Of a stretch of 64,000 nucleotides of DNA, positions 21,544 to 50,334 are shown in pieces. The position numbers and the translations under genes were made by a program. The notes below the pieces were generated by a model. It saw only the letters and a program-made list of their open reading frames with translations. It had not been told where the DNA came from and did not search any database. Each line of letters starts with the position of its first letter. Position 1 is the first letter of the stretch. Source of the DNA: Alphaproteobacteria bacterium RIFCSPHIGHO2_01_FULL_41_14 (GTDB lineage: Bacteria; Pseudomonadota; Alphaproteobacteria; UBA7879; UBA5542); contig MEMF01000002.1 in the NCBI GenBank assembly GCA_001767855.1, positions 369,493 to 433,492 of the forward strand. Reading direction: 5' to 3'.

Positions 21544-22740
21544 ATGTTGAACTGGAAAACGTTGATGGGATGGAGAAAAGAGAAACCCTCTGCGAAAGAC
21601 CTCGCGTGGGTGCAGGGAGGCCGACCCATGGGGGCCTCGCGCACCTACACTCGATTGGCAGAGGAAGGGTACGAGCGCAATGTGATTGTTTACAGATGCA
21701 TCAACCTCATTGCCAAAAATTTGGCCATGCCTCCTTGGATTTTATACGAGGGAGATCGCGAGGTAGAGCGGCACGTTTTGGCGGACCTCATAGAAAACCC
21801 CAACCCCTTGCAAACGCGCACCACGTTTCTAGAATCTCTGGCCAGTTATTTGCTGCTCGACGGCAATGTGTATGTGCAAGCTGTGGGGGAGGAAGGTGTC
21901 CCTCGTGAGCTTTTTCTTTTAAGGCCCGATCGGGTGCAGATTATGGCGGGGGACGGTACTCTGCCGCGGGGATATGTGTATCAGGTGGAAGGCAAAAAAT
22001 CCTATTACCCGGTAGATCCCGAGACGGGGGCATGTGCCATTCTGCACCTCAAGTTATTCCATCCCAGCAATGATTGGTATGGCCTGAGCCCCATTCAGGC
22101 GGCAGCGGCAGCTATTGATCAACATAATGCGGTGGGGAGTCATAATCTTTCTTTGCTGCGCAATGGGGGACGACCTTCTGGTGCCTTGGTGATGCCAGGG
22201 AATGAGGGTTTGACGGATGAACAACGGATGCAGCTCAAAGAAACGGTGCGAAATCTCTATCAAGGCTCCGAGAATAGCGGGCAGATTTTGGTGCTGGAAG
22301 GCGGCATGAAATGGTGCGAGATGGGCCTCACCCCCAAGGACTTGGATTTCATGGCGGGCAAACATATTTCCACCCGCGAAATTGCCCAGGCCTTTGGGGT
22401 GCCCTCCATGTTGGTGGGGGTGCCGGGAGATAGTACGTTTTCGAACTATCGTGAGGCTCGATTTCATTTGTGGGAAGACACCGTCTTGCCCCTCCTCCAC
22501 ATGGTGATGGAGGAAATGAACCGGTGGATTGTGCCGGCGTACGGTGAGCAGTTAGCCTTTGCTTATGATGCAGATCAGATTCCCGCTTTGGGATGCCGGC
22601 GTGAACGGCTGTGGAACCGTATTCAAGATGCCACCTTCTTAACGGTGAATGAGAAGCGATCTGCCCTGGGGTATTCGCCCCTTCTAGACGGAAACAATTT
22701 AGAAAACATAGAAAGGAAACACAATGATTCAACAAGATAA
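21544..22740 (+). CDS. Phage portal protein, HK97 family (GTA g3-like)
   Basis: 398 aa. Motifs typical of HK97-family portals: NPLQTRTTFLESL...LLDGNVYV, LSPIQAAAAAIDQHNA, GRPSGAL, REARFHLWEDTVLPL. Immediately followed by protease and capsid genes. Confidence 0.88.
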   Translation: MLNWKTLMGWRKEKPSAKDLAWVQGGRPMGASRTYTRLAEEGYERNVIVYRCINLIAKNLAMPPWILYEGDREVERHVLADLIENPNPLQTRTTFLESLASYLLLDGNVYVQAVGEEGVPRELFLLRPDRVQIMAGDGTLPRGYVYQVEGKKSYYPVDPETGACAILHLKLFHPSNDWYGLSPIQAAAAAIDQHNAVGSHNLSLLRNGGRPSGALVMPGNEGLTDEQRMQLKETVRNLYQGSENSGQILVLEGGMKWCEMGLTPKDLDFMAGKHISTREIAQAFGVPSMLVGVPGDSTFSNYREARFHLWEDTVLPLLHMVMEEMNRWIVPAYGEQLAFAYDADQIPALGCRRERLWNRIQDATFLTVNEKRSALGYSPLLDGNNLENIERKHNDSTR

Positions 22741-23263
22741 AAAACTGACTCTAAAATCCACCACAGACGCCGGATGGTTTTCGGGATATGCGAGCGTTTA
22801 TGAGTGCCTAGATCTCCACAAAGATATAGTGGCTAAGGGTGCCTTTACAGAGACGCTCAAAGGGGAAGAATGGCCCAAAATGTTGTGGCAGCATGACCCA
22901 GCGCATCCCATCGGTCGGTGGGAGAAAATAGAGGAAACAGAGGAAGGTCTTTATGTGGAAGGGCGACTGTTTTTGGAAATTGAAAAGGCGCGCGAGGCTT
23001 TTGTGCTGCTGTGCGAGGGGGTTTTGAATGGTCTCTCCATCGGGTTTCAGGTGGAAAAATCCCGCCGGCTTTCCGGGGGGAGGTTGTTGGAAAAAGTGCG
23101 CCTTTATGAAATTTCACTGGTGACGTTTCCGGCGAATGGGAATGCCCGGGTTCTGACGGTGAAGAACCAAGATTTGTGTGCGGATCTTTTGGAAAAAGTG
23201 CAGCGCTTGCGGGAATCCATTTCCCGTCACTGCGAAGAAATCCGTCAGGATTACTGTCTATAA
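22724..23263 (+). CDS. HK97-family prohead (head-maturation) protease (GTA g4-like); the last 13 codons and the stop are supplied by a repeat element
   Basis: GYASVYECLDLHKDIVAKGAF...WQHD..HPIG... LSIGF...LYEISLVTFPANGNARV. The 3' end overlaps repeat B (23222..23314). Confidence 0.85.
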   Translation: MIQQDKKLTLKSTTDAGWFSGYASVYECLDLHKDIVAKGAFTETLKGEEWPKMLWQHDPAHPIGRWEKIEETEEGLYVEGRLFLEIEKAREAFVLLCEGVLNGLSIGFQVEKSRRLSGGRLLEKVRLYEISLVTFPANGNARVLTVKNQDLCADLLEKVQRLRESISRHCEEIRQDYCL

Positions 23264-23314
23264 AAGCTGGATCGCGTGTGATCAGCTTTTCAAGCCTCCT
23301 CGCGATGACGGGAG
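23222..23314. repeat. Palindromic repeat family B, copy 1
   Basis: tcccgtcactgcgaagaaatccg...tataaaagctggatcgcgtgtgatcagc...cctcgcgatgacggga. The termini are imperfect inverted repeats. A second copy at 59077..59193 carries a roughly 24-bp insertion. Confidence 0.8.
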
Positions 23315-23366
23315 TGGGGGACGGCAGAAAAATGAATAACACCTTTCCCGAATAGGGAAAATCACG

Positions 23367-23391
23367 GGCCAGATTTTCTGGCCTTTTTTTT
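23367..23391 (+). terminator. Rho-independent terminator between the protease and capsid genes
   Basis: GGCCAG-ATTTT-CTGGCC followed by an 8-nt T-run. Confidence 0.6.
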
Positions 23392-23418
23392 ATCCATCAA
23401 TATGAAAGGACAATATCC

Positions 23419-24552
23419 ATGACACTAGAAAAACTATCGACAAACATCGACGCGTTGGAAAAAGGATTCCAACAGTTTCAATCCACCCAACAAGGGCGCT
23501 TGGAGAAGCTGGAACACAAACTGTCCGATCTGCCGCTCTTTCGTAAACAGATGACCGCCGATCGGCGTCCAGAGGTGTCTCTCAAATCAACGCTGCCCCA
23601 AGGCAGTGCGACAAAAGCCTTCGAGGCGTATGTGAGAGGACATACCGATTGGGATGTAAAGGCGCTCAGCACGGGGGAGACGCCCGGGTCGTACCTCATG
23701 CCGGAGGTCATCCAAGAACGCATCTCGAAAGACCTTCAGTCAGGCAACTCGTTCCGGTCTGTGGCGCGGCAGATGAGTGTTTCGGGGGGCAGTGTGGACG
23801 TGATTGTGGATCGTGACTTGCCGGCGGTGGGATGGGTCTCGGAAATGGAAGCACGACCTGAAACTGCGCCTCCTATTTTAGAAAAAATCCGCATTACACT
23901 GCAGGAACTCTATGCCAAACCAAAGGCTACCCAGAAACTATTGGATGATGGAGCCATTAACATCGAGGATTGGCTCGTGCGTAAGGTGACCGACAAGATG
24001 ACTCGTATCGAAAATGAAGCCTTTATCTTGGGCAATGGTGACGGGAAGCCCCGGGGGTTCCTCAGCTATGAGATGGGAGACGAAGCCACTTTCGGGCGAC
24101 TGCAGCACCACAAAACTGGAGAAAATGGGGCCTTCGGAGACGATGGCGCCGATGTGCTGGTGGATATGGTGGCTTCGCTCAAAACCGAGTACCAATCAGA
24201 AGCTGTCTGGATCATGTCGCGCTCGGCACAAGCCGCGGTGCGCAAACTGAAAGAATCCGAGACGGGGCAATACTTGTGGCAACCGGCGCTGGGGGAAAAA
24301 CCTCTGCCCACGTTGCTTGGGTATTCCGTGTATGTGCTGGATGAAATGCCGGCGCTTTTGCCGGGAATAGCTAGCTGCTCCCTCGCCTTTGGAAACTTTA
24401 AGGAGGGCTATCAGATTGTGGAAAAACCTCAGATCAACGTTTTGAGGGATCCCTATAGTGCCAAGCCCTATGTGGAGTTTTACATCACCAAACGCGTGGG
24501 CGGAGACGTGATCGATTTTGATGCCATTAAGGTATTGAAGTTCGAAGCCTAA
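23419..24552 (+). CDS. Phage major capsid protein, HK97 family (GTA g5-like)
   Basis: 377 aa. N-terminal delta-like coiled coil, then ...GSYLMPE..., LQELYAKPKATQKLLDD, FILGNGDGKPRGFL, LAFGNFKEGYQIVE. Position directly after the protease gene. Confidence 0.88.
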   Translation: MTLEKLSTNIDALEKGFQQFQSTQQGRLEKLEHKLSDLPLFRKQMTADRRPEVSLKSTLPQGSATKAFEAYVRGHTDWDVKALSTGETPGSYLMPEVIQERISKDLQSGNSFRSVARQMSVSGGSVDVIVDRDLPAVGWVSEMEARPETAPPILEKIRITLQELYAKPKATQKLLDDGAINIEDWLVRKVTDKMTRIENEAFILGNGDGKPRGFLSYEMGDEATFGRLQHHKTGENGAFGDDGADVLVDMVASLKTEYQSEAVWIMSRSAQAAVRKLKESETGQYLWQPALGEKPLPTLLGYSVYVLDEMPALLPGIASCSLAFGNFKEGYQIVEKPQINVLRDPYSAKPYVEFYITKRVGGDVIDFDAIKVLKFEA

Positions 24553-24582
24553 TCCAACCCCATCTTTTTTAATCAAGACCCA

Positions 24583-24612
24583 AAAGAGAGGCATTCAGCC
24601 TCTCTTTTTTTT
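24583..24612 (+). terminator. Rho-independent terminator after the capsid gene
   Basis: AAAGAGAGG-CATTCAG-CCTCTCTTT followed by a T-run. Confidence 0.65.
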
Positions 24613-24620
24613 AACCAACA

Positions 24621-24728
24621 TATAGCTAGAGCCATTTAAATTGAGCATAGGCACGACGCAGCGAAGCGTAGTCAACCTACGTGAGTGAGGAGTAACGCAT
24701 GATCAATTTATAAGGGATCGGCTATAAC
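24621..24728. repeat. MITE-like palindromic repeat family A, copy 1 (about 107 bp)
   Basis: Near-identical to 50229..50334. The termini TATAGCTAGAGCCATTTAAATTGA and TCAATTTATAAGGGATCGGCTATA are imperfect inverted repeats. Confidence 0.85.
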
Positions 24729-24740
24729 AGGAGAGACTCA

Positions 24741-25331
24741 ATGAAAACATCCGTATTAGACCACCCAAAGACAGAACCCGTTTCCCTTCTAAAGGCGAAA
24801 ACGTTTTTAAGAATAAATCATACCCACGACGATGAGCTTATGCCCCACCTGATCACCACGGCTCGGCAAATTGCTGAGACATATACGCGTCGTAAATTTA
24901 TTACGCAACGCTTGGTCTCGGTACTGCCGTTCCGCCCCAATCACAGCAAGAAAGCAGGACTGCAGCGCGTGTGGGCATCAGGAGACCGGTATGCCCTCTT
25001 TCTACCCCGTGGTCCCGTGCAGAAAGTGGTGGAAGTAGAGATCATCACGGAAGAGGGCGAGACGTTGCCCGTTTCGTACCACGGGTACCATGTGAATCAT
25101 CATCGAGACCCCGCGTTGCTGGTGGTGGATGACCGAAACGGCTGGGGGGTGCGTGTCACCTACGACGTGGGATATGGCGATCGAGCCGTAAATGTGCCGG
25201 CGCCCATCCGTCAGGCCATCTTGCATATGGTGGTGGAGATGTACCAAAACCGCAATGTGCTGGAGGCTCGCTTGATCCGCAGCGTGACGCCTTTCTTGGC
25301 GCCCTATCGGTTGATGGGAGATATGCTATGA
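24741..25331 (+). CDS. Phage gp6-like head-tail connector (GTA g6-like)
   Basis: The opening EPVSLLKAKTFLRINHTHDDELMPHLITTARQIAETYTRRKF is the typical gp6-like start; position after the capsid gene. Confidence 0.75.
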   Translation: MKTSVLDHPKTEPVSLLKAKTFLRINHTHDDELMPHLITTARQIAETYTRRKFITQRLVSVLPFRPNHSKKAGLQRVWASGDRYALFLPRGPVQKVVEVEIITEEGETLPVSYHGYHVNHHRDPALLVVDDRNGWGVRVTYDVGYGDRAVNVPAPIRQAILHMVVEMYQNRNVLEARLIRSVTPFLAPYRLMGDML

Positions 25332-25675
25332 CACAGAAAAAACAAGGCTGCGACGCGCTGACGGAACTGGTGTTCTTAGAGCAACTCTTTCAGGAATCCG
25401 ATGGAGAAGGGGGACTCACCTCCGAGTGGCGACCGGTGGAGTCCTTGTGGGTCAAAATTGAGGCCCAAAAACCGGGAAGCGTGACCGAGCGGTGGCAAGG
25501 AGAACGCCCGCACTTTGCCGCGCGATATTGGGTATGGATCCGGCAAGAGCAGGTGCTGCCGCCGATTTATCGGCTGCGGTGGGAGAAGGGGGTGTTGACC
25601 CCCCTCTCCGCTATGACGTGCCTTGCGGGGGAGGAATGGCAAATGGTTTTGACTGAGCAAGAGGAGGTATCATGA
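25328..25675 (+). CDS. Phage head-closure / head-tail adaptor protein (GTA g7-like)
   Basis: 115 aa, translationally coupled (ATGA overlap), with the expected size and position in an HK97/GTA head module. Confidence 0.65.
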   Translation: MTQKKQGCDALTELVFLEQLFQESDGEGGLTSEWRPVESLWVKIEAQKPGSVTERWQGERPHFAARYWVWIRQEQVLPPIYRLRWEKGVLTPLSAMTCLAGEEWQMVLTEQEEVS

Positions 25676-26067
25676 AAAGTGACTATGGCGTGATGGGGGC
25701 CGTTTACCAGGCGTTGTCGGGGAGGGAAGGGACGCTCAAAATTTTCCACTATGTCCCCCAAGGGGTGATGCCCCCCTATGCGGTGCTGGAGCTCATGGCG
25801 TTGGAGCGGGGGAACTCCCTGCCCCCGCCCCACTTTCAAACCCGAGGTGAGATGACGGTTCGCGTGTGGAGTGCCTATGAGGGCCTCGCTGAAGTGGCGG
25901 AGATCGTGGGCGCGCTCAGTATCTTTTTTGACGGGAAAAAACTGGACCTCCCTGAGGGTCAAGCGTGGTTTGATGTAACAGAGAGGCGATTTTCCGCCCA
26001 GCAGTCGAGCGCTAAGAATCCGTGGCGAGAGGGAAGTGTAACGCTGCGATTTGTAGTGCGACGATAA
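25672..26067 (+). CDS. DUF3168-type tail-completion protein (GTA g8-like)
   Basis: 131 aa, ATGA-coupled. The opening AVYQALSG......IFHYVPQGVMPPYAVLE resembles DUF3168 openings. Confidence 0.6.
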   Translation: MKSDYGVMGAVYQALSGREGTLKIFHYVPQGVMPPYAVLELMALERGNSLPPPHFQTRGEMTVRVWSAYEGLAEVAEIVGALSIFFDGKKLDLPEGQAWFDVTERRFSAQQSSAKNPWREGSVTLRFVVRR

Positions 26068-26185: not shown

Positions 26186-26692
26186 ATGACACAAACGCTT
26201 CTTAAAATTCAGGGAGCTGGCATGCCGCCCGTGATGCTGGACCAGTGTACACAAACCCTGGAAGCGATGCCGCTGGGGGGCCTTCACCGCACGGTGAATG
26301 GTGAGCTTATTTATACGGGCGTGCCGGGGAGGATGAAGTACCGCACCGTGTGCTCGGGCACGGGCAATGGGACCCCGGGCTTGGATGCCCTCAAACGAGG
26401 GGATCAAGTGACCGTGCACTGTATCCAACGGTTGTGGCAAGAAGCGACGGGGGAGCGGACGATACTCTCCCGCCCTGCTGTGGTGGGGACGGTGCTGGTG
26501 ATGGACGAAAATCGGCAGGCGGTGGCGTTTACCATGAACTCCCCTTCCGAGGTGGCGGTGACACCTCCCCTCTCGCTTCCGTTGTATCTGAGTTATTGCC
26601 CCGTTTTGATCACCCGTGTGGGGGAGATTAAATTGAAAGCACGGGAATGGGACGGGGGGCAAGAGTGGCATCTCGGGATGGAAGAGGTTTAG
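26186..26692 (+). CDS. Hypothetical protein, GC-rich, phage-module associated
   Basis: ORF continues the GC-rich block after g8. Start chosen at MTQTLLKIQ. No recognisable motif, and it does not resemble the TP901-1/GTA g9 tube protein. Confidence 0.45.
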   Translation: MTQTLLKIQGAGMPPVMLDQCTQTLEAMPLGGLHRTVNGELIYTGVPGRMKYRTVCSGTGNGTPGLDALKRGDQVTVHCIQRLWQEATGERTILSRPAVVGTVLVMDENRQAVAFTMNSPSEVAVTPPLSLPLYLSYCPVLITRVGEIKLKAREWDGGQEWHLGMEEV

Positions 26693-26740
26693 AAAGGATG
26701 GGTGTTGACAGGAGCGGAGCTCCCCATTACAGTCAAATTC

Positions 26741-27649
26741 ATGACACATGCACCATCAAATTGGTTCCTGTCCGCGGGATACAGGCAAGGGGTTTTCTGG
26801 GCCATTCTTACAGCGCTCGTCAGCGTTTCTAATGACGTGATCACCAAGTTTGTGGGGACGCGGTTGAATGGGATGGAGATTTCTTTTTTCCGTTTTTTCT
26901 TTAGTATGATCACCGTGCTGCCTTTCATGATTCCTCAGGGATGGAAGGCCTTTAAAACAGAACGGGCTGATTTGCACGTGTGGCGGGCGGTGATTGGCGC
27001 GGCGGCCATTGCGTTGTTCGTTTTTAGCTTGATTTACTTGCCGTTGGCGGAAGTTACGGTTTTTTCGTTTACCCAACCCCTCTTTTTCATGCCCATTGCG
27101 CTGCTGCTGCTGAAGGAAAAAGTCACGTTTAATCGATGGATTGCAGGTATCTGTGGATTTATTGGGATTTTGATCGTAATCCAACCAGGGACCCTGTCTT
27201 TTAAAATGGTGTCGCTGTTGCCCATGGGCGCAGCCTTTTTGTTTGCCATGCTCGATATGCTGGCCAAGAAAATGGTGGTGAAAGAAAGCACCACCACGTT
27301 GTTGTTTTATTTTGCGTTGGGGACAACGCTTGCGGCCTTTATTCCAGCCCTCTATGTGTGGCAAACGCCGACCCTTGTCGAATTGTTTTGGCTCTTCTGT
27401 TTGGGGGCGGGCGCGAACTTGATTCAAGTGTGTTTGTTTCGAGCGTTTGCGGCGACGGACGCGTCATCGCTGGTGCCCTTCCGATATACGGAACTCGTCT
27501 TTGCCTCCCTCTTTGGGTATATGTTCTTTAACGAACTGCCCAGCCTGATCGTTTATCTGGGTGCCGCCGTGATTATTGCCAGCACCTTGTACCTTTCGTA
27601 CTCAGAAATGCGCCGGTCGAAAAAAGACCCACTGCCGATGGCGTCTTGA
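26741..27649 (+). CDS. DMT superfamily (EamA-like) transporter
   Basis: Ten hydrophobic helices in two EamA-like halves. ATG 26741 is preferred over GTG 26702. Confidence 0.8.
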   Translation: MTHAPSNWFLSAGYRQGVFWAILTALVSVSNDVITKFVGTRLNGMEISFFRFFFSMITVLPFMIPQGWKAFKTERADLHVWRAVIGAAAIALFVFSLIYLPLAEVTVFSFTQPLFFMPIALLLLKEKVTFNRWIAGICGFIGILIVIQPGTLSFKMVSLLPMGAAFLFAMLDMLAKKMVVKESTTTLLFYFALGTTLAAFIPALYVWQTPTLVELFWLFCLGAGANLIQVCLFRAFAATDASSLVPFRYTELVFASLFGYMFFNELPSLIVYLGAAVIIASTLYLSYSEMRRSKKDPLPMAS

Positions 27650-28357: not shown

Positions 28358-28532
28358 GGAAGCCTCCTTGTAAGTTATATCCTTCAAGCGTACCAGAGTC
28401 CTACTGGGCTGGCAACCCCACCCCCCTCTTTTTGTTTGATCCATCGCCACTGTGTTGCTCCTCGTCATTACGTTTTTTCCTGTCGCCCTCGATGGCACGC
28501 GGGGGCCCAGGAAAACTTCAGCTTAAATACTG

Positions 28533-28686: not shown

Positions 28687-30384
28687 ATGACATTTTATTT
28701 TGCGTGGGTGAACACCCCAGAAATCTTTGATGCTGGTCGGCACGCACGGATGGACGAATCCATTTTGCACTTCGAGGTTGATCACCAAGAGGGCGCCGTG
28801 CCCTTGTTGCGGCTCACGGTGGCCCTTGCGATCCACACCCCCCAAAGGCAAGGCCAACGGGGGATTTTGTGGCAGCAAGACGAGGCAGGCCATGCACATC
28901 TTTTATTTGATGGCATTTTAGTGATGACCCCAGCGGAAAAAAGGGAAGATTTCTTGTTGTTGGTACTCGAGGCGGGGAGGGCTGACAAGCCGTCCCAATT
29001 GGAACGGCTGTTGAGCACAAAAAAACAACAGGAATTTGAACCTTTATTGGTGGCGGAAGAAGATCAAGAGGCGGTGGAGGAAGTGTTAGAATCTCTCTCT
29101 GCCGTGCCCCATTGGGATCGCCTAACGGGCGACGTTATACTCACGGAATTAGGTCAACATCGAGAGACGGTGGATCTCGGCCCCACCTTTTTTGCGGAGA
29201 GTCTTCAGATGCACCAGGGAGGACGACCTCTGGCGGCGGTGCGGTTTTCTCTGACGGCCGAGTGGGTGCAGAGGTATGATGGCGTGGTGGACTTGGGCCC
29301 CCTTATTCAACAGGCTGGTACGCGCGGATACCTCAGCAGCCTTACCCCTGACGATTTGCAAAAACGATGGTGGCGCAAGGTGTATCCCCTGCTGCGGACG
29401 GGTTATGAGATTTTGGAAAGTCGCCTCACGGTGGTGGTGCCCCCCGAGACGGGTGGGCTCGAGGTGTATCCCCTAAAAAGCGCTGCCTTTACGGTGCGGG
29501 GACGTGTCCAAACCTTGGCGCGTAGCTGGCTGCAGCCGGTTTTGACACTCCAGTGGCATTACCGGCAAAAACGCAAAGAAACGGTACACATAGAGGTGCC
29601 CTGTGGAAAAACGGGTGACGTGTTAGAGTTGTCTGTGCGGTTGCAGGATATCTGTGGTGCTCAGCCCATCGCCTCCTGGAAACCTCATCAAGTGTATCCT
29701 ATCAAAACTTTGGTGCGGCATGAGGACACAGTGTATCGGGCCATCAAAGTTCATGTAAGTGACACTACTTTTCAGACAGAATTCTGGGAGGTACAAGGGA
29801 CGTGGCCCACTGCGCTCGAGGACCCCAGCCGCTGGAGTTTTTTCGAGACAGAGCGGGGGCGCGCCGTGATTCATCATGTGATGCGGCGGGCAGAGGCTTA
29901 TGGGGTCATGGCGGCGAGAGAGCTGGAGGTGCGGTGTCATCTTCCCTTTGCCGCGGGTCGGCTGTTACGCGGGAATCAACAGGTCCGGCTCACGGATCCA
30001 CGGTTGCCAGGGGGATCGGTGACGGGAGATGTGCTTCACTATCGGCTGGTGGCAGAGGGGGATACGGGCGAGCGCTGGGCTGAGGTGACCCTTGGGGTGA
30101 CGATGCATCTAATGCGAGCGTGGAAACTGAAAGGATTGCAATCCCTCAAGAAGGCGGAAGGCATTCTAGATCCCCGGGCTGTGACCGCGGCAGATCTAGT
30201 CACTTCTCTGCAGCTGACCGGTGGGGCGGAGACGCAAAACCAACGCCTGGAGAGAAGAGATTTTCCCAGCTTGATGGCCGCCCATCGAGCCTTGGACAAA
30301 ATTCCGACGCGATTGAGGATCGAGCTGAAGGATCTCAAAAGTGCAGAAGAGTTGAGTCATGAATGGGCAGCGGAGATTCTGTGA
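28687..30384 (+). CDS. GC-rich phage-like protein (566 aa), possible tail or host-recognition component
   Basis: GGGAG RBS before ATG 28687. Composition matches the GTA block. Contains the segment ASWKPHQVYPIKTLVRHEDTVYRAIKVHVSDTTFQTEFWEV (29671..29793), which resembles the CBM5/12-like W..Y..G..V..Y.A...H......W motif common in phage fibre or baseplate proteins. Confidence 0.5.
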   Translation: MTFYFAWVNTPEIFDAGRHARMDESILHFEVDHQEGAVPLLRLTVALAIHTPQRQGQRGILWQQDEAGHAHLLFDGILVMTPAEKREDFLLLVLEAGRADKPSQLERLLSTKKQQEFEPLLVAEEDQEAVEEVLESLSAVPHWDRLTGDVILTELGQHRETVDLGPTFFAESLQMHQGGRPLAAVRFSLTAEWVQRYDGVVDLGPLIQQAGTRGYLSSLTPDDLQKRWWRKVYPLLRTGYEILESRLTVVVPPETGGLEVYPLKSAAFTVRGRVQTLARSWLQPVLTLQWHYRQKRKETVHIEVPCGKTGDVLELSVRLQDICGAQPIASWKPHQVYPIKTLVRHEDTVYRAIKVHVSDTTFQTEFWEVQGTWPTALEDPSRWSFFETERGRAVIHHVMRRAEAYGVMAARELEVRCHLPFAAGRLLRGNQQVRLTDPRLPGGSVTGDVLHYRLVAEGDTGERWAEVTLGVTMHLMRAWKLKGLQSLKKAEGILDPRAVTAADLVTSLQLTGGAETQNQRLERRDFPSLMAAHRALDKIPTRLRIELKDLKSAEELSHEWAAEIL

Positions 30385-33120: not shown

Positions 33121-34029
33121 ATGAAATCTTACAGAGAGAAACCGTATCATCCTGGATATGTAGCCCCCCTCACGGGAGAGGCTTTTACGCGCCGCGCCGT
33201 GCTCGAAATGGAAGAAGAGGGGTTTGCCCAGGGGCATGACGTTCAGATTTTAGAGGCGCCCCCGCACCTCACGTTACGGCTCGACATGCGTCTGCATTTT
33301 TACGAGGGGGCGGTCCCTTTAGAGCGGGGGGTGAATGGGAAATCAGCAGGGATCACACCGCTCTATCAACCGGGGAATGTGCTTTCTGACGGGTCAGAGA
33401 ATCTCAAGCCCTTATGCAAGGTGCGGGCGGTGGATTTTGTGTATCTGCAGCGGGGGATGTATGTAGACGTCGAAGAGGTGAATCGACCTTTTTACGAAGG
33501 GCACGGAGTGGCAGCGCTCATCCAGTTGGTACTGGGTCAAGTGGTGTTCCAAAAGCCCTTTGCAGGACGGGCTGATGCGCTGCGTTTGGAGACCCATCTC
33601 AGGCGGCAGGATCGGGATGAATGGACGGAGGTCATCGGTTTTGGGCGTGAAACCTACCCCCTCTATCCCTATGGCGGGTATGCCCCTCCCCACGGTGACG
33701 TGCGGGAGGTGGAGCAGGTGTATGCCTTCGCGGGGGTGGACCGCAGCGACGGGCAGATGGTGACGGCCTTGAAGCTCTATCGAAGCTCTTTTTTCCACAC
33801 CAGTGGGGGATTTCCGCCCACTCCTTTTACGTATGATCATAAAAAGTGGGTTTTCCCCCAAGGCGTGTTGCCCCTTGAACAGATGACGGTGGGGCAGGCT
33901 CTCAGCGAGGGGCATCTGACCTTTACGCTGAAGGAGGCGTCTGGGGAGGTACAGACGTATGCCTCCTATGGGTATGAGCAGGTGGGGGGGTCTATGAGCC
34001 AAATTAACGTACATTGCCAACCTCAATGA
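33121..34029 (+). CDS. GC-rich hypothetical protein (302 aa); the 3' end abuts an IS remnant
   Basis: Long ORF with the GTA-block composition and no recognisable motif. Its final codons run into the transposase-fragment frame. Confidence 0.45.
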
Positions 34030-34119
34030 TCTTTCCCAAACGCTGGGCCCCCGCCTACGAGAGGGCGACATGGGATGAGATTTTAAACTGTCTTCATCGC
34101 CCATCTTTCGTATTTGCAG

Positions 34120-34520
34120 GGAGTCTATTGATAGAGATCTATGGAAAACCTAATGTGATTGTAAGTGACAATGGAACCGAACTTACGAGTAAGGCTGTTT
34201 TAGAGTGGGCAACAAAGCATCGTATAGAGTGGCACTATATCACCCCTGGAAAACCTTCTGAGAATGGCTTTACAGAAAGCCTCAATGGAAAAATACGGGA
34301 TGAGTGTCTCAACGAACATTGGTTCCAAACCCTCCAACAAGCCAAGGATATTATCCATGACTGGAGGCAAGATTATAACTACGTCAGACCACATTCCAGC
34401 CTAGGCTACAAAACACCTATAGAATTTATAGGAGTCCCCAATGGAGAAAAGAGAGAAGATTTTTGTTCATTGATTCCAGTTCACAAACCGGCTATAAAAG
34501 CCTCAGGACTCTACTTCTAA
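34120..34520 (+). mobile_element. IS3-family (IS407/IS2-like) transposase fragment: C-terminal part of the rve/DDE domain only
   Basis: [92 protein letters not shown]. The HTH and the first two DDE acidic residues are missing upstream. Confidence 0.8.
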
Positions 34521-34920: not shown

Positions 34921-35475
34921 TTATGATAATCTTGATTTGTTGTAATGAGCTTCGATGATGTCGTCATAAAACCAAGGTGACTCATAATACAGTCGCCAAA
35001 TAAATCTTTCGAAGGAATCTTCTATTTTTATATGACTAGGAGTCCATACTGCATTAGGGTCATGAGAAGCTGGTCTCATAATAAGAAACCTCGAAGAATC
35101 CCCAATTTCAAAAAAAGGCAGATCCCCAGGTTCAAGCATTTCGAGAGTAGCATTACTCATCCAATGATCCTCGCATTCTGCAGGCCCTTCTATAGTTTCT
35201 GTTCTAAATCGAATAATTTCTTTTGAAAAATGAGCCACCACCAAGGGAGGAAGAATTTCGTTATTATTATAAAATTCGTATCCCGCCGGAGGAATCTCAG
35301 GGGAACGTAACATTCCAAAACCAATTTCCTGATAAAAAGATCTTAATTGAGATGGAAAATTAACTCCCAATTTTTGTTCTGCAGTCACAATTTCTTCAGA
35401 TTTTAGTGGCAAGAACCAATTGTCGTTAACTTCACTGCCTCCAGGAATAAATTGTTTTAAATATTCGTAAGTCAT
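34921..35475 (-). CDS. SMI1/KNR4 (SUKH-1) family immunity protein
   Basis: Typical opening ...EEIVTAEQKLGVNFPSQLRSFYQEIGFG. 184 aa. The start codon overlaps the toxin stop (ATAATG at 35475). Confidence 0.85.
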   Translation of the reverse strand: MTYEYLKQFIPGGSEVNDNWFLPLKSEEIVTAEQKLGVNFPSQLRSFYQEIGFGMLRSPEIPPAGYEFYNNNEILPPLVVAHFSKEIIRFRTETIEGPAECEDHWMSNATLEMLEPGDLPFFEIGDSSRFLIMRPASHDPNAVWTPSHIKIEDSFERFIWRLYYESPWFYDDIIEAHYNKSRLS

Positions 35476-38400
35476 TATTGTTTCGTTTCTAACAACCTAT
35501 TTAAAGGGGACCCTGTCCCATGAATGCCACCTTGGTGTTGGGCTCCAAAAGAAACTGGTTTCATATTCCACCAAACGTGTGGCCCTCCTACCTCTTGAGG
35601 AATAATATGATGCGCATCAACTCGTGTTTTTTTTAACTCTCCTCTGATATTGCGCATCTGAAATGGCCACACTTGCCCCGTATGATGTTCCCATTCACTG
35701 ATGAGATTCTGCCTTGTAGCTTTCGTAAAAGAATCAGAATGCAGCTGCTTTTCCATAGGTGTCAACTTTTCAAACTTACCCGTTCTCATGGCAGTTGCCA
35801 ATTCTTTTTTTTGCAGTTCGGTAAATTTAAACCCAGATCGGGCTTCCATGTCTCGGATATACTCTACCGCACCCCCTGCCCATTTTGTATCAACGGGTTT
35901 GGTTTTTCTAACTTCCCCCACCAACACCTCAGCCCTTGCCCCGGTCGATTCTGCCATTACAGTAGAACGTGCAGCACCCGAGGTATTAGCCACCATTTTT
36001 GGACGAACAACAGAACGAGAGATGTCGAACAGTTTCATGGATTCATCAGCGCTAGCAACAAATCCTCCTATACCTTTTAAAACCTTTGCTGCTCCTTTCA
36101 CAAGGGGACCGCCTACCAAAAAGGCTCTGCCTATCTGATCCAAAAAACTTTGCGGCAAGCGTTGCTCAGCAGGGGTGTTGACGCCGAACAGCGTAAATGC
36201 TCCCAATACCGCTTCGCTTTCAGCGATGTTTTGGGCTGTTTGTTGTATCATAAACAGTTCCGACGAATCCCTTGATGTTACAAATGATTCTAGGGTCGCA
36301 TGATATGTTCTCTCATTCTGTGCCTGTATGTCTGAGATCACTTCTTTAAAATCACTTACAGGACCGAGGTCTCCCCGACGAAAGCCCCTTCCTATGGCTT
36401 TCACTATCCAGATATCAGACTCTTCTATTCCATCGAGAAGGCTACTTGCTTTCTGCCCAGCTTTCTCTAACACCTGCTTATATACTTCCCCAGTACTCAG
36501 TATCCCTTGGTCCTCATCCTGCTGCTCTTGAGCTATCAACTCCATGGTTTGTAGGAAATTTTCATCAATTGCTGTCGTCCCTGTATGAACTGCAGTGCCC
36601 ACCCCCCCTTGGCCGGTGGCAAGCGCAGCGATCCCCGCCATTATCTTAGCCGTGTTGGCATTTCTTTGAATCTCTTCCTGAGTCGATGTTGTTGTCGTGA
36701 GCCCTTCTGCAACCATTTCTGCAACAGCCGCTCCAATCGCTCCGGCCAGCGCGCCACGTCCTATATGCTTCGGATCCAGAATGGCCCCCGCCGCAGCGCC
36801 CACGGCCGCATGCAGAATCTTGTGGGTTGTTCCATCTAAGGACTCTACAGAACCGGTTGCCTCTTTGGGTTGGTTTGCAGCCCTTGCTTTTCCTAATTGG
36901 TTAGCCGCATACCCTTGCACAACATTTGCAACCATAAGCCGTGCTGCTTGGCTTAGATCAGGTGCTTCTTGGTTGACAAGGGCTGTTACAGCTGTTTGGG
37001 TGCCTGTCGTAAACACCGCTCTCGCTGCATGCTGAGCTGGCGTCATATCAGCCCCTTTCAGCGTGATACCTAAGGTGGGCGCTAGTTTGTTCACAACCCC
37101 AGCTGTAGCCGCTGCAGCGATAACCGTCTTGAGGCTTTCCACCGAAGCGAGGCTTCGACAAGTTGCTTGTAGGTCTCCTCCTGTTTGGAGAAAGGTGACA
37201 GCCGCCGTGGAACAAAGAGTGCTGAAGGCTGCATTCCCCATAACGGCTAAGATACCACTCCCGGCACCCCCTGTCGCAACGGACACAGCAAGCGCAACAA
37301 TGATGGCACCCTCCTGCCCAATACCGGTAGAAAATCTTTTGGTATGCACCCAAGAGGTTAATTGACGTGTCCTCTCTTCCGGGTCGATCCCGCTGATTAA
37401 CGTTGCATACTTATCCCAGTCCACGTTTGTAAATTGAGCCGGCACATGAATAGATTCCCATTCTTTTACGTCTACACTGGACCGATGTTCTACCTCCTGA
37501 CCTGCTTCCGTTCTCGTTCCCATCGTTCCAAAGAAGCCGCTCTGGCTCGATTCACTTCGTGTGAGCATCACCTCCACCGTGGGGCGTACGGTCATCCCTT
37601 GGGTGGTCATATCCGTGAGTTTATCTCCACGAATCGTCGTTCCTTCAAAGTCAGCGGTCTTTGTGTCCACCTGGATCGTTTTTCCTTCAACATGCGTGTC
37701 TAAAAATTGAGGCATCTCTGTAGTACTTTTTTGCTCTGCCCCACCAAACGATGTGGCTTGTGTCATGGTTGAGGTGTGTTTGTTATGACGTGCCTTCGCC
37801 CCCGTCTTGAGCGTTTCCCCTTTGAAGATGAGCTCCCTTTCTGGCGCTCGTACAATCCCTTCTGCTGTAATCACCTGACTCAACAGCTTTAAGCTTCCTT
37901 CCAGACTTCCCATCTCAGGGGTGCTAAAGGCCGTTTGATAGAGTTCGTCCTCTGTCGCCTTGGCTGAGAAAGCCGATTGTTTTACTCGACATGTGTGGTT
38001 TTGTCGATATTCCTTAGACGCGTATTCTTGCTTGATCTCATACTCGGCCTCAACAATGTTGTCTCTCACCGTGAGATAATAACTTCCATGGTTCTCAAAA
38101 ATTTTGGCCTTGATATGTCCTTTCTTACTTCCAAACACAAGCGTCTGCACATAAGTGGGGAGAATCACTTCTTGGCCCAAGTCGTTAAGAATTTTTTCTT
38201 GAAGATCTAACGTATTGAGCAAAACCCGCCACCCATTAAGAGTCACATCGCCCCCAATGAGATTCATGCCTGTTAAGAGAATATCTTTATCTGACTCAAA
38301 CGCCACACTCCCGTCCTGCCCTGATCCTGCAATTGCTAGAAGACCAGGCCGACGTATTGTATGATGATGGGTCGTCTCTTGTATCTTGGACGAACTCGAT

Positions 38401-41400
38401 AAGAATCCTCCTTCTGCCGAAGCGCTCCTTTCTTTCGTTGAAACATCTTCTTCATATGTATGGGAAGAAGAATGAACCCCGTCTTTTCCACGAACTTTAA
38501 ATTTCTTTTTTCCAATGTTGACACCATCTAGAATAACTTTACCCTCTGTATCAATGACATACTCTTTCTCTGCAATATTAGCGCCATCCGGACGATTTAA
38601 ATCCGGATGAAGGGTTCCTTTCTTCAAATGAAGGACGGGCACCAAACATTTTTTCTCATTAATAATTTTTGGAACGAAATATAACCCCTCATCCACTTCC
38701 TCAGGAGTAATGACCAGAATCTCTCTATAATAAGTTTCAGACTCTAGGTCGGGCTCTCCCCCACTTTCCTGAGGAAGATAGACAAAGTTTTTTCGAGCAA
38801 CTGTTGAGGGATTTTTTTGTAACGCAGCATCATACGCAGCTTTTCCTGCATCTGCCACTTGTTTCATGGAAGGGATATATCCCGTATTCATTTTTCTATG
38901 AAGAAGTCTGGTCATCAGCCCCTGAATGTCTTCAGGAGGCAAAAGCATTTTGTAAGACTCAAGGTCTTCCACTTTTTCAGCCCCCTCTATAACAACCATG
39001 GGGATCTTTTCCTTAAAATTTCTTTTCAAACTCGTTTGTAAAATATAAGGAGATTCTTCTGGAGCAGTTACATACATCTGACGATCAAACCCATGCGTTT
39101 CTTCAGGAAGTATCTCCATAAATTCTGGAAGTTCCTTAACTTCTGGGAGTTTAATGTTCCCTTGATATCCCGTTGTAACAGCCCCCGTGGCCTGAACGTT
39201 GATGGTATCACTCACCATATTCCCCGAAAGGTCCGCTTCGCCTATGCCTGTGACACCAACTTTTTCTGCCGAACTCATGACGGCATGAACAACCCCCCTT
39301 GTCCCCGCTTCAGGATAGTCCCGCCGCCAATACGTATAGGATTTACTTTTACTCCCTATTCCAAAGGTCGAATGCTTTTCCACAGAAACATCAACCCCTG
39401 TCTTCGTAAGGGTTTGGATATGGGTTTTTACATAATTTTGGTTCACAACCTTTGTTGCAAAATCAATACCAACCTCACTCCTGGCCCCCTGATCATCCGC
39501 TTCAAAGGTGTTTAGGAACTTTCTCTTTTGTTCTTCTGGGATCCCCTCAATCTCAATCCCCCCTGGCGCATACAAAAAGCTTGCGGCATTCAACGCATAA
39601 ACTATATCTCTGAGTTTTAATTTTCCTTTTCCTATATTGAATTCCGCCGGATCTGTGTTGGCATAATCTATCTGCCAATACCGATGGGAGACGATGCTTG
39701 TATCAATAATGCCCAACATATTTAAAAAGTAGGGAACTCTCCATTTAAACTCTTCTGGTTGCGTCCCTATATGAAAGGCTCCTCCAAAGTTGAGGAATAA
39801 ATTTAAATTTTCTACACTGACACCCTTTTGAACCTGTACTAACCCCAAGGTGCTGAGGAACTTCCCCTCTCGAATGCCTTCGATAAAAAGTTGTCCTCCT
39901 ACATTCAAATAACAATTAGGTTGAGACTTATAAAAATGATGTTTCCAATCAAACTTGTCTCGTCGAACATCTCCCTCTGTCAGGATCTCTGTTTCTTCGT
40001 CTCCGATCGCCCAACCCATTTGGATATGGGGAGAGACCAACTCTGTATCTCCCGCAGACTCCATTCCTCCATAATTAAAAATCTGCTTTGTTCCAACCAA
40101 AGTGAGTTTCTCCGCCCCGAATATTGATTCGGGAGGCTTTTCTTTGCTAGAGAAACGAAAATCCAAGTCCTCAAACACTTGGGATAAGAACTCGTCTTCT
40201 TTTGCATGTTTCAAATATGGAAAAGGAAAGCAATTATCCTCTCTTCTATCTTCCACATCGAGATTGGCCTCGTTGATGATTGTTTTAGCCTTTATTGTAA
40301 GTTTTTTCTTCGTCTTAAGAATACTGCTATTATAAAATTCAAGCCCCTGGAGGTTCAAACTGTAGGGAAGGTCTTCTAGAGGGGTGTTATTCTGAATAAC
40401 ACCTCCATAGGTGATGAATAAGGATTCACAGTTTAAATCAATTAGGTGGCTTTTATAACCCAATATTTCTTCTAAAGTTCTCGATTTTTGGCTAGCTGTT
40501 TCGTGGAATTCTAAAATAGGAGCTGTTAATATTCCTCTCAAAAAAGACGGTAAATTTTCAACGCCTTCAAAAGATATTTTTTCCTCAGACTCAATTGTGC
40601 CCCCAGCATCAATATCGTGTTGAGATAACGTACGACTTTTTAATCCTCTAAGTTCTTTAAACTCAATTTTTTGTTTAGCTTTTATCTGTCCTCTTCCATT
40701 CGCGAGATGAAGTTCTGTTTCATTGAGAGATAGCTGATCTTTTGCCGTTATTTTTCCTCGAATGTTTGAAATCTTCCGCATCTTTTTTAGATCAATATTT
40801 CCTTCTGAAAATATCTTTCCTTCCGTATTATCAAGTGTTTTCCCTCCCATCTTTATTTGATGAGTGGACTCTACCCGTCCCCTCGCGGTGCTAATGAGAT
40901 CTTGAGCTTCTAGTATAACCTCGGGTCCAGCAATAACGCCGCCGTCATTATTAAAGATATTTCCCTGTAGGCTTGCAAGATGCGTGCTGGTTTTAGATTT
41001 AATTGTAGACTCATCATGGTTTAAGATCCGACTTTGGGCTTCTAAAGAAACTCTGCCTTCAGGACTTTCAATTTTTGAACAATCCCCATTCACTATGTCC
41101 CCGTTTGTCTTAGTCTCCACTAACGTTTCTCCAACAACGGAAGATCCTTCTGAATTAATAAAGTTTCCTAATAATTCATCTATTGCAGGCGCTGTTTTAT
41201 CCCCACCCTCTTTCTCTTTTGTTGAGTTTGATGACGCCTCCGCAAACCGTTTGGCATGAGACTGGCTATATCTATCAAAACTAGAATCTTTATTGCTGAG
41301 AATGGGTGTGGTGGACTCTCCGATTTGAATTCTAACCGTTCCACCAGAAATAAGGGCGACGATAGCATTAGAAATCCCTTCAGAGACTCTCATATCTAAA

Positions 41401-43953: not shown

Positions 43954-44979
43954 TTGCAGTATGTAGTGCGTAATCTGCACACTAATTCATTTTCAGAGAC
44001 GCGAAGCAATTATCCCACACCGCTTTGTATGTCTCTAAAACGAAGTTTTATTATAACAGGGTCTAGTAGCCCCGATCTTCTTTCTCAGACGTCAGAAACT
44101 TTGGCGGGAAGAGTTGGGATATTAGAAATAGGAACTCTAAAAGCAAATGAGTATTATCAAAAACCTCTGAGTCCTTTCTATAATTTATTTGCTTCAAAAA
44201 TTTCACCTGAACGCATTCCTTCTGGTTCCCAACCCCTCTCAGGCCAAGAGATAGACTTTATTTGGATGAAGGGGGGGTATCCAGAGCCCTTACTGGCAAA
44301 GAATCCGCTTTTCTATAATCAATGGATGGAAAACTACAGGGATACATATATTAACCGAGATATAGCGAGGCTGTTTCCTTCTCTTAATAAAGTCAATTAT
44401 CGTCGTTTTCTCAGCATTCTTTCTAAATTATCTGGAACGATTCTCAATAAGCGAGACATGGGCCGAGCGCTAGAGGTCAATGAAGGCACGATAAAACAAT
44501 ATCTCCATATCGTGACGGGCACTTTTTTGTGGCGTTCTCTGCCGAGTTTCGAGAAAAATATTATCAAATCAGTTATTAAAATGCCGAAAGGATATATTCG
44601 AGATTCAGGTCTGCTTCATTATCTAACAAAAATAAGCTCCCTTGAAGAATTGAGTGAAAATCCCTTGGTCGGTGCTTCTTTTGAATCTTTCGTTATAGAG
44701 GAGCTTTTGAAAGGATTAGAGTCAACGCTGGTTACAAACTGGCAGCCTTTTTATTATAGGACGAGAAATGGAGCAGAGATTGATCTTATTTTAGAAGGGC
44801 CTTTTGGGGTTTTGCCCATAGAGATTAAATACAGTTCTACCGTGAAGTTGAGACAAATTTCTTCTTTAATCCAGTTCGTAGAAGAACACCAATTTCCCTT
44901 GGGAATCGTTATCAACCATGGCCGATCTATCGAATGGATCCATGATAAGATCGTCCAAATCCCTGTGGGCTGGATTTAA
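43954..44979 (+). pseudogene. DUF4143-containing AAA ATPase (COG1373-like), 5'-truncated
   Basis: Contains ...IITGSSSPDLLSQTSETLAGRVGILEIGTL and a C-terminal DUF4143/PD-(D/E)xK-like region (GAEIDLILEG...LPIEIKYS). It lacks the N-terminal Walker A region expected about 100 aa upstream. The track start is a TTG. Confidence 0.6.
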
Positions 44980-49151: not shown

Positions 49152-49614
49152 ATGTTAACACTTTTAGGATCTCTTCTAGGGTTTGTGGGCAGCCTTGTGC
49201 CCGAGATTTTTAAATATATTCGAGATTGTTCCGACCAATCACACGAGCTGAAAATTCTAGATCGGCAAGTCGATATGATGAAGTTGCGCCATGCCCACAA
49301 CTTGGAAGACTTACAAATGGTGGGTCAGACAGAAGCCTTAAAGGTTCTGTATAAATATCCCCCCAAAATGGGAGTTCGGTGGGTGGATGCCCTGAGCGGC
49401 AGCGTCCGTCCGGTGATCACCTATGCTTTTTTTGGCTTGTATCTTGGGTTGAAGGGGGTGCAAATTTATGGGTTGTGGCACTGGTTGCCCCTGGCCGGAT
49501 GGGGAGCATCTGCTGAGCAAAATTTGGCATGAGGAAGACCAGATTTTATTCGCAACCGTGGTGTCCTTTTGGTTTGGTCAACGGGCCTTGATTCGCCGAT
49601 TGAAGAAAGAGTAG
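49152..49614 (+). pseudogene. Putative 3-TM holin (GTA-holin-like), with the last TM segment in a different frame
   Basis: TM1 MLTLLGSLLGFVGSLVPEIF and TM2 VRPVITYAFFGLYLGL are in the track ORF, which stops at 49532. A +1 frame continues LLSKIWHEEDQILFATVVSFWFGQRALIRRLKKE and stops at 49612..49614, 4 nt before the lysozyme ATG. Confidence 0.5.
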
Positions 49615-49618
49615 TCTC

Positions 49619-50086
49619 ATGAATCGTCGAGTAAATGGTCAAGACGACACCTTCGTCAATACTCAGGCTATAAGGCTTATTAAAAAATTTGAGGGAAAGA
49701 GTCTGGTGCCTTACGCGTGCCCAGGGGGATACAAAACGATTGGGTGGGGGCATCGTGTGCTGCCGTACGAATCTTTCGTATCCCTTACGCTGAGAGAGGC
49801 TGAGGTTTTATTGGTGCACGACTTGCAGCGGTGCGGGCGGACATTGACCCAGTTGGTGACGGTACCGCTGGAACGCCATCAAGAAGCGGCCCTGCTATCG
49901 TTCCTATTCAATGTGGGAGGAGGGGCGTTTCAGCGCTCAACCCTGCGCATGAAAGTGAATCGGCAAGAACACTTAGACGTGCCGTACGAGTTCCATCGAT
50001 GGGTGTGGGCCAAAGGGCGGAAATTGCCCGGGTTAATCGCCCGCCGCGCTGTCGAAGCCGCGTGCTATGAAGGCGTGTTATTCTAG
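49619..50086 (+). CDS. Phage-type lysozyme / endolysin (GH24-like)
   Basis: AIRLIKKFEGKSLVPYACPGGYKTIGWGH..., QEAALLSFLFNVGGGAF, and WVWAKGRKLPGLIARR. Confidence 0.88.
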   Translation: MNRRVNGQDDTFVNTQAIRLIKKFEGKSLVPYACPGGYKTIGWGHRVLPYESFVSLTLREAEVLLVHDLQRCGRTLTQLVTVPLERHQEAALLSFLFNVGGGAFQRSTLRMKVNRQEHLDVPYEFHRWVWAKGRKLPGLIARRAVEAACYEGVLF

Positions 50087-50228: not shown

Positions 50229-50334
50229 TATAGCTAGAACCATTTAAATTGAGCATAGGCACGGCGCAGCGAAACGGAGTAAACCTATGTGAATGAGGAG
50301 TAACGCATTCATTTTATAAGGGATCGGTTATAAC
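50229..50334. repeat. MITE-like palindromic repeat family A, copy 2
   Basis: Aligns end to end with 24621..24728 with about 10 substitutions or indels. Confidence 0.85.

Follow-up and report, generated by a model that had tools for sequence, protein, structure and literature searches.

Why tiny endosymbiont genomes keep phage-capsid genes is a question that was raised in 2022, and it arises again at a locus of Alphaproteobacteria bacterium RIFCSPHIGHO2_01_FULL_41_14, whose genome is ~986 kb. We analyzed a 64,000-nt stretch of this genome (hereafter the window; all bare coordinates are window positions), in which six co-directional genes at 21544–26067 follow the g3–g8 order of the gene transfer agent (GTA) of Rhodobacter capsulatus (RcGTA) and are all intact. 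Our best explanation, to which we assign a probability of about 0.72, is a Holosporales-type, RcGTA-related, domesticated GTA-like gene set, vertically inherited in an uncultured groundwater alphaproteobacterium of endosymbiont type with a ~1-Mb genome, and equipped with a putative stub tail and a putative two-piece terminase. Sequences of relatives that were compared with the window are labeled with L-numbers (L001, L006, L030 and so on). The capsid protein is encoded on a contig of 985,649 bp and recurs in many groundwater and soil metagenome assemblies, and the closest named relatives are Candidatus Bealeia, a Holosporales metagenome-assembled genome, and, for the family of one downstream gene (orf565, described below), Candidatus Paracaedimonas. 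The head and neck genes are the following:

21544..22740, + strand: portal protein, RcGTA g3 type (PF04860, 3.5e-82; TIGR01537)
22724..23263, + strand: HK97-type S78 prohead serine protease, g4 type (PF04586, 5.5e-29; TIGR01543)
23419..24552, + strand: HK97-fold major capsid protein, g5 type (PF05065, 1.3e-72)
24741..25331, + strand: head-tail adaptor, gp6-like, g6 type (PF05135, 1.8e-9; TIGR02215, 3.8e-21; PHROG 442)
25328..25675, + strand: head completion protein or stopper, g7 type (PF05521, 4.8e-5)
25672..26067, + strand: tail terminator, DUF3168/Tail_completion_gp17, g8 type (PF11367, 1.3e-6, above the cut-off; PHROG 176, 'tail terminator')

An initial annotation, made from the DNA letters, had read these as portal, HK97 protease, HK97 capsid, gp6-like, adaptor and DUF3168 genes in the RcGTA order, and the family matches bear this out gene by gene. 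Among sequences of solved structures, the portal is closest to RcGTA Rcc01684 (7.8e-84, with the next phage at 2.4e-19) and the capsid to RcGTA Rcc01687 (2e-68, with the next match at 5e-36). In single-sequence PDB searches the adaptor, stopper and terminator had no significant RcGTA match, the stopper giving a weak hint of Rcc01689 (E 0.49). The g7 and g8 identities are made at the level of Pfam families, and the stopper score falls just under the Pfam threshold (24.3 bits for PF05521, with a cut-off of 25); its orthologs in L008 and L028 carry unmarked Phage_HCP matches. Canonical RcGTA-type clusters (Afifella, Methylobrevis, Novosphingobium, Parasphingorhabdus) have 40–46% portal and 35–37% capsid identity to the window.

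These genes are maintained. Compared with L001 and L006, every head and neck gene, together with the downstream genes orf168 and orf565, has a nonsynonymous divergence (dN) of 0.11–0.35 and a synonymous divergence (dS) of 1.3–5.8 or beyond correction. As dS is saturated, the comparison yields only an upper bound on dN/dS (ω), roughly ω < 0.2, and the exact ratio is not measurable. Neutral evolution is ruled out over the L001/L006 divergence, and the GTA genes are under purifying selection, as in the clusters of George et al, 2022. The position of the head module is also constant: it lies between cmk-rpsA-MFS and EamA in relatives with 84%, 83%, 82% and 58% capsid identity, and the gene for the major facilitator superfamily (MFS) protein lies upstream of it in the window as well. 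Other assemblies of the organism are ~100% identical at the locus, with no empty site seen. In the Pfam records and scans, which covered 13.4–64 kb of the window, no integrase, repressor, replication gene or att feature was present. Orphan open reading frames (ORFs) that were scanned directly returned no integrase either; all that was seen was an IS3 transposase fragment and a HigBA pair. Because the site is conserved across species, dN is far below a saturated dS and no integrase was found, we conclude that the element is a domesticated, vertically inherited particle gene set and not a prophage. Reduced genomes of ~1 Mb lose useless DNA, so the retention of these genes would in addition argue for a function.

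The initial annotation had suggested, among other checks, dN/dS of the head genes, had named a typical integrase and att sites as marks of an ordinary prophage, and had offered two readings. On both points the results are those just given, and the first reading, a fragmented and decaying GTA or prophage, is not supported by them: the genes are intact, synteny extends to 58% capsid identity, dN is low and no integrase was found in the 13.4–64 kb covered. An ordinary integrated prophage or a recent phage remnant is highly improbable. It would account for phage-type head, lysis and terminase genes that are GC-richer than their surroundings and for the IS3 fragment and HigBA pair nearby, but the chromosomal position and flanks are the same in several species, independent samples are nearly identical with no empty site, the features of an integrating phage listed above were not seen in the 13.4–64 kb covered, and the closest solved relatives are RcGTA proteins. 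Elevated GC relative to the host genome is itself a reported GTA trait (PMC7360931).

The domesticated gene set has published counterparts. George et al, 2022 (Genome Biol Evol; PMC9254644) described GTA capsid–portal clusters without detectable tails across Holosporaceae and Rickettsiales, with the large terminase away from the main cluster, purifying selection, and unknown genes downstream of the adaptor that were suspected to be divergent tail genes. The region described here is a further member of this class, and the phenomenon is already published. Like those clusters, it retains capsid, portal, protease, adaptor, stopper and terminator, has no tail detectable by sequence, and keeps the large terminase subunit (TerL) apart; its host may likewise be an endosymbiont with a reduced genome. 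It differs from them in that its downstream genes have fold-level assignments as a tube or distal tail (Dit) protein and as a hub with a CBM5/12 module, with a linked lysis pair; in that low-GC effector and toxin genes, along with repeats, have spread the cluster out; and in that its TerL consists of two selected ORFs, a split unmentioned in the text of the paper (PMC9254644). There are thus two modestly new features, the fold-level tail-tip genes and the conserved split terminase, and the classification is unchanged by them.

Whether the supposedly missing tail is truly missing turns on three genes downstream of the tail terminator, the first of which is followed by a transporter gene:

26186..26692, + strand: orf168, conserved tube-fold protein, candidate tail-tube or distal-tail-ring protein (fold match, conserved position)
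26702..27649, + strand: EamA/DMT (drug/metabolite) transporter, a passenger gene (PF00892)
28687..30384, + strand: orf565, baseplate-hub-fold protein with a CBM5/12-like insert, tail-tip candidate (fold match and linkage)
33121..34029, + strand: orf302, conserved protein linked to the hub gene, a further tail-tip or baseplate candidate (linkage, GC3 0.63)

The initial annotation stated that the first of these ORFs does not look like the tube protein g9, that a DMT transporter gene comes next, and that no tape-measure, hub or megatron genes follow. The transporter is there, and at the level of sequence families the rest holds too: among the ORFs examined in the window, the tail module g9–g15 (tube, chaperones, tape measure, DUF2460 Dit, DUF2163 hub, NlpC/P60 peptidase, megatron) gave no Pfam, NCBIfam or PHROG match. 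At the level of predicted fold it holds only in part, as orf168 is modeled as a tail-tube or distal-tail protein and orf565 as a baseplate hub.

For orf168, neither Pfam, PHROGs and NCBIfam nor a profile search of PDB sequences gave a match. The gene is nevertheless kept at the same position in relatives (65% identity in L006, 55% in L028, 42% in L008), standing directly after the tail-terminator gene in the window, L006, L008, L028 and L030, and GGAGGGAG lies 6 nt upstream of its ATG. An AlphaFold2 model from 16 homologs (pLDDT 87, pTM 0.79) has Foldseek matches almost only to tail-tube, Dit and neck tube-fold proteins, RcGTA 6toa_G and 6tba_50 among them, with TM-scores of 0.3–0.48. For orf565, whose family counts 978 representatives, Pfam, PHROG and NCBIfam were equally without a match, and the profile search of PDB sequences matched the CBM5/12 segment only. 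Its model is of higher confidence (pLDDT 92.8, pTM 0.84), and all 37 of the 37 PDB matches at E<=1e-3 are hub, spike or tail-tip entries (best 2.5e-10), including Pvc8, Afp8, VgrG1, Mu gp44, T4 gp27 and the 80alpha baseplate. Over positions 333–378 a profile of the family aligns with chitin-binding CBM5/12 modules (2.5e-10), and members match PF02839. On these models, tail genes do appear to exist at the level of fold, and the cluster would not be tail-less; the glycan-binding module of the hub suggests a surface that a particle might bind.

The third gene, orf302, has no match in Pfam, PHROGs or NCBIfam or among PDB sequences, and is tied to the hub by its neighborhood. It is 59% identical to a 302-aa gene in L028 and 26% identical to a 294-aa gene in L025 that lies one small gene downstream of the hub homolog; it weakly matches the 298-aa gene after the hub in L030, and the post-hub gene in L029 is also distant kin. 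One candidate for a tape measure was considered, the 452–473-aa genes that follow orf168 in L006 and L008, and was rejected, as these are low-GC, carry signal peptides and are missing from the window.

The same genes bear on a different possibility, namely that the head and neck form a maintained GTA-like capsid while orf168, orf565 and orf302 belong to another contractile or injection system, such as one with Hcp-like and VgrG-like proteins of a type VI secretion system (T6SS), or to an unrelated surface structure, and are merely nearby. The best hub-fold matches of orf565 are indeed spikes of extracellular contractile injection systems and T6SS (Pvc8, Afp8, VgrG1), the orf168–EamA–orf565 trio occurs in L026 and L029 without adjacent neck genes on the short contigs available, and the orf565 family was not found in IMG/VR viral contigs, a weak negative in that the scan used two peptide patterns only. 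We nonetheless regard this as unlikely. The place of orf168 directly behind the tail terminator recurs across the five sequences named above; downstream of the L030 hub come genes for a CBM protein, a cell-wall hydrolase and a membrane protein, in the manner of phage late genes; and the hub gene of L025 adjoins holin and lysozyme homologs. The fold matches of orf168 are mainly siphophage tube and Dit proteins and RcGTA neck chains, with Hcp only at rank 39 (probability 0.47). Published Holosporales T6SS loci, [tssB-tssC-hcp] and [ywqK-vgrG], have recognizable Hcp and VgrG (PMC8163844), whereas neither orf565 nor orf168 has a VgrG (Phage_GPD, Phage_base_V, T6SS_Vgr) or Hcp Pfam match, and their neighbors are neck genes, EamA and lysis genes. 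All three genes also share the third-position GC content (GC3) of the head genes.

That the three genes belong to the particle set, together with a lysis pair further downstream, is borne out by less disrupted relatives. In L030 (46% capsid identity) a single run reads portal, protease, capsid, adaptor, genes of 106 and 117 aa, a 171-aa orf168-like gene, EamA (on the opposite strand), a 602-aa orf565-like gene and a 298-aa orf302-like gene, and ends (L030:17832-19471) with genes for a CBM5/12 protein of 176 aa, a SleB-type cell-wall hydrolase (Hydrolase_2) and a membrane protein of 177 aa. Parts of this linkage are found in L028, L006, L026 and L029, and an orf565 homolog is tied to the head module in L006, L028 and L030. 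EamA stands between the orf168 and orf565 homologs in every relative where both were seen (L006, L028, L026, L029 and L030). This embedded EamA (L026:1369-2316, L029:2576-3562, L030:13506-14426) goes down to 26% identity and occurs on either strand. The lysis pair of the window consists of:

49152..49532, + strand: holin-like small membrane protein (PHROG 6637, 3e-20, function unnamed; two hydrophobic segments, two-TM)
49619..50086, + strand: GH24 phage lysozyme, endolysin (PF00959, 2.9e-33; GC3 0.61)

Here the initial annotation, which had placed a holin-lysozyme cassette at these positions, was correct: the GH24 lysozyme is real and a holin-like gene with two transmembrane segments precedes it. 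The two are 56% (holin-like gene) and 51% (lysozyme) identical to homologs in L025 by blastp, where the holin homolog lies directly before the lysozyme homolog, 3 kb from the orf565 homolog. The lysis cassette is exchanged within the cluster family, L030 having its Hydrolase_2 end where the window has the holin-like/GH24 pair.

The window holds the L030-type genes in the same order with low-GC genes in between, so that the set spans ~29 kb. Base composition separates the two kinds of gene, the ORFs flagged as GC-rich having a GC3 of 0.60–0.69 vs 0.27–0.55 for their neighbors:

GC3 of head and neck genes: 0.53–0.66
GC3 of tail-tip candidates and lysozyme: orf168 0.69, orf565 0.60, orf302 0.63, lysozyme 0.61
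GC3 of the terminase halves (see below): terN 0.57, terC 0.66
GC3 of inserted genes: 0.27–0.49

Given the conserved linkage and the shared GC3, orf168, orf565, orf302 and the lysis pair belong with the head genes, which upholds the earlier suggestion that the GC-rich orphan ORFs at 28687..30384 and 33121..34029 are part of the system. The separating low-GC genes encode small secreted proteins, HigBA, the IS3 fragment, a SUKH immunity gene with a 2363-aa DUF637 toxin, and a DUF4143 ATPase, and the window as a whole contains leucine-rich repeat (LRR), Fic, WH2 and toxin genes. What best accounts for the scattering is the insertion of foreign low-GC genes into a cluster that was ancestrally compact, rather than a regulon designed like that of RcGTA. 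The second reading offered initially, a partly maintained multi-locus GTA like the RcGTA regulon, is thus supported as to a maintained multi-locus GTA and not as to the regulon design. Since the scattering is secondary, it is the 'compact' relatives that give the real gene list.

In relatives, the spacers between portal and protease, between capsid and adaptor, after the terminator gene and after orf168 hold low-GC LRR, Fic and secreted-protein genes (L006:1427-2839, L006:5286-6368, L008:11230-12975, L028:4120-5724 and L028:1090-1824), and particle genes are never broken by them. The cluster spacers may be a preferred landing site for effectors, or the effectors may be co-expressed with the cluster. 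With LRR and Fic effectors lodged repeatedly in relatives' clusters, the particle may act in host interaction rather than in bacterial gene exchange.

The second of the new features concerns the motor that would fill the head. TerL lies 35 kb downstream of the portal and is divided:

58156..58911, + strand: N-terminal ATPase half of TerL (terN) as a separate ORF, Terminase_6N (PF03237, 3.8e-29)
58912..59232, no strand: terminase-linker insert of 321 nt of palindromic repeats, with at least 3 in-frame stops
59233..59760, + strand: C-terminal RNaseH-like nuclease half of TerL (terC) as a separate ORF, Terminase_6C (PF17289, 8.1e-21)

The initial annotation had one large terminase gene at 58156..59760. 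A terminase is there, well away from the head genes, and it is not one gene: two ORFs in the same frame are separated by the 321-nt gap with its stops, and the nuclease ORF has its own GGAGG 5 nt upstream of its ATG. As the identical split is found in 18 contigs from independent assemblies, it is not an assembly error. An intron in the gap was considered and rejected, the gap matching no intron or other RNA family in Rfam and the insert of relatives being unrelated sequence or an ordinary gene. The insert is strongly structured (z = -5.6), and copies of its repeat lie at 23222–23313, 28422–28443 and 54867–54888, the repeat stretch at the terminase itself running over 58893–59232.

Among ~90 relatives with both halves on the contig, TerL is fused in most (for nearly all, a gap of 18–51 nt between the two matches and no stops). 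The split occurs in clade A, comprising the window, L015 and L031, and in clade B, comprising L033 and L040; L034 groups with clade B, its contig ending before the C-terminal half. L032 and L036 have no nuclease half within 3–5 kb, and a further exception, L024, has a frameshifted gene. In every case the break falls in the linker that joins the two domains. Where the fused L039 reads ...RDLIQYGLPLG-VNAF-VRVVIAVDPA, the stop comes a few codons past YGLP in clade A and just past KY in clade B. What is inserted varies: the window has 321 nt, clade B has 552–560 nt of repeats, and L015 has 2.2 kb that include an unrelated 404-aa gene. At the depth that matters, the terN tree shows a polytomy and is compatible with a single or a multiple origin of the split. 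In canonical relatives (L019–L022) a fused TerL lies beside the portal gene, and in the relative L016/L030 TerL is ~100 kb from the capsid gene.

Both halves look like working genes. The catalytic motifs are kept (Walker A AGRGFGKT, Walker B GAWVDE, TTTP and the nuclease Asp motifs). Between the window and L015, the N half has 82% identity, dN 0.12, dS 2.1 and ω ~0.06, and the C half 81% identity by tblastn (84% over 172 aligned codons), dN 0.115, dS 1.53 and ω ~0.08. Between L033 and L040, ω is 0.14 for the N half and 0.07 for the C half, and the two share a conserved Shine-Dalgarno–ATG start (MDKDF) for the nuclease half. In at least two clades, both halves are intact and purifying selection acts on them. 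Because the motifs are kept, the nuclease half has its own ribosome-binding site and both halves are selected in at least two clades, this is probably a working two-piece terminase, with ATPase and nuclease as separate genes. An active split TerL would be nature's own test of whether the two domains of a viral packaging motor need a covalent link.

Phage terL genes can be interrupted by introns, inteins and homing endonucleases, as in Twort-like Staphylococcus phages and in the inteins of mycobacteriophages. The terminase described here resembles these in that a terL coding sequence is broken by mobile DNA. It differs in that nothing restores a single polypeptide (no intron family match and no intein), the insert varies among relatives, and the nuclease half has its own start and ribosome-binding site.

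A further explanation is a decaying remnant, that is, a dead GTA or prophage with its tail lost, its terminase broken by repeats, and its ORFs intact by chance or because loss of function was recent. Repeats with stop codons do interrupt the terminase, and a repeat has likewise replaced the C-terminus of the protease: of its 179 residues, homology to relatives covers those up to 167, and the final ~12 codons together with the stop are repeat-derived. Scans of the window detect neither a tape measure nor canonical tail genes, the whole region is interspersed with foreign genes, and the terminase of L024 is clearly frameshifted. We find this explanation quite improbable all the same: the structural genes are all intact, here and in relatives at saturated dS, with the low dN given above; the TerL halves keep 77–84% amino acid identity with ω of ~0.06–0.14 and intact catalytic motifs, in two clades that each already share the split; insertions always lie between genes and never within a domain; and retention in a ~1-Mb genome argues for function.

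Several points weigh against the domesticated particle set as we have described it, and against its tail and terminase in particular. The sequencing runs that contain the locus are DNA runs only, the RNA runs of that study being tiny and empty. With TM-scores of a modest 0.3–0.5 and 6–16% identity, the fold matches indicate a fold class and not orthology to RcGTA g9, g12 or g13; the top 50 hub matches of orf565 include no RcGTA baseplate chain, and the hub fold is shared with VgrG, so that a hub-fold protein could in principle serve a T6SS. The window yielded neither a tape measure nor a tail chaperone, small terminase or regulator, and ring and hub would have to assemble without a tape measure. 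Lastly, the ATPase half of L024 (Holosporaceae bacterium HK-STAS-PROT-86) is broken by several frameshifts, and a split TerL may have lost packaging activity. In that relative (L024:6001-10682) the nuclease half is 3.5 kb away, with a decayed relative of the 404-aa separating gene of L015 in between.

With these points in view, we picture the domesticated gene set as follows. A small RcGTA-like head and neck would carry a stub tail of ring and hub without a tape measure, and particles would be released by holin–endolysin lysis. TerL, divided at the linker between its domains so that ATPase and nuclease are separate genes, would drive packaging as a two-piece terminase, and the cargo would be random host DNA, as in GTAs, or something else. 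A broader proposal is that the 'tail-less' Holosporales GTA clusters specify a complete if unconventional particle, with an RcGTA-type head and neck, a stub tail of one tube-fold ring and a gp27-like hub that exposes a chitin-type CBM5/12 module, a lysis pair of its own, and a selected two-piece TerL in several lineages. We put this forward tentatively, at somewhat less than even odds. The locus adds three testable points to the question of 2022: the diverged ring, hub and partner that partly make up the missing tail, the gene list given by compact relatives, and the split terminase.

Compared with RcGTA itself, which has a 17-gene head–tail cluster plus distant loci (structures 6TBA, 6TSU, 6TE9 and 6TOA), the window shares the g3–g8 order, capsid and portal homologs, a TIGR02215 adaptor, lysis genes unlinked from the structural cluster, elevated GC, and the lack of integration and replication genes. 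Unlike RcGTA, it has no sequence-detectable g9–g15 (a PF06199-type tube, tape measure, DUF2460 Dit, DUF2163 hub, peptidase and megatron); its hub fold resembles gp27, VgrG and Mu gp44 and contains a CBM5/12 insert; its TerL is split and not next to the portal; and neither a small terminase nor a GafA/CtrA-type regulator was recognized in the window. The siphophage tail-tip core (Dit plus hub/Tal, as in 80alpha, T5 and SPP1) offers a second comparison. Like it, the candidate genes run from a tube-fold ring to a gp27-like hub and then to fiber-like and lysis genes, an order seen in L030. Unlike it, the set described here lacks a tape measure, a chaperone pair and a separate major tube gene, EamA lies between ring and hub, and identity to any phage protein is 6–16%.

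Between the head genes lie smaller features, two of which the initial annotation had called as terminators, between protease and capsid and after the capsid; hairpins with T-runs are found at both places:

23366..23393, + strand: terminator-like hairpin with T-run in the protease/capsid spacer (8 pairs, 5 GC, T8)
24582..24612, + strand: intrinsic-terminator-like hairpin after the capsid gene (perfect 11-bp stem, loop ATTCA, T-run; read directly)
24621..24728, no strand: repeat resembling a miniature inverted-repeat transposable element (MITE) in the capsid–adaptor spacer (second copy at 50229–50335, after the lysozyme; blastn, 90% over 109 nt)

Palindromic repeat families resembling Rickettsia palindromic elements populate the spacers of the window more generally. 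Directly downstream of the nuclease half (59921–61480) is a gene for a 519-aa LRR_6 protein of ribonuclease-inhibitor type with a signal peptide, whose internal repeats are ~76–80% identical as DNA. A fragment of an IS3-family transposase (rve_3, C-terminal part only) at 34014–34520 begins within the last codons of orf302, and other assemblies of the organism have the same gene pair. Between orf302 and the lysis pair, a polymorphic-toxin cassette at 34921–42566 (GC3 0.27–0.39) encodes the 2363-aa DUF637 (haemagglutinin/CdiA-like) protein, followed by the SUKH-1 (SMI1/KNR4) gene. An AAA_14/DUF4143 ATPase gene also stands between the orf302-type gene and the holin–lysozyme pair both in the window (43954–44979) and in L025 (L025:3223-4392), on opposite strands, which may reflect chance or old synteny.

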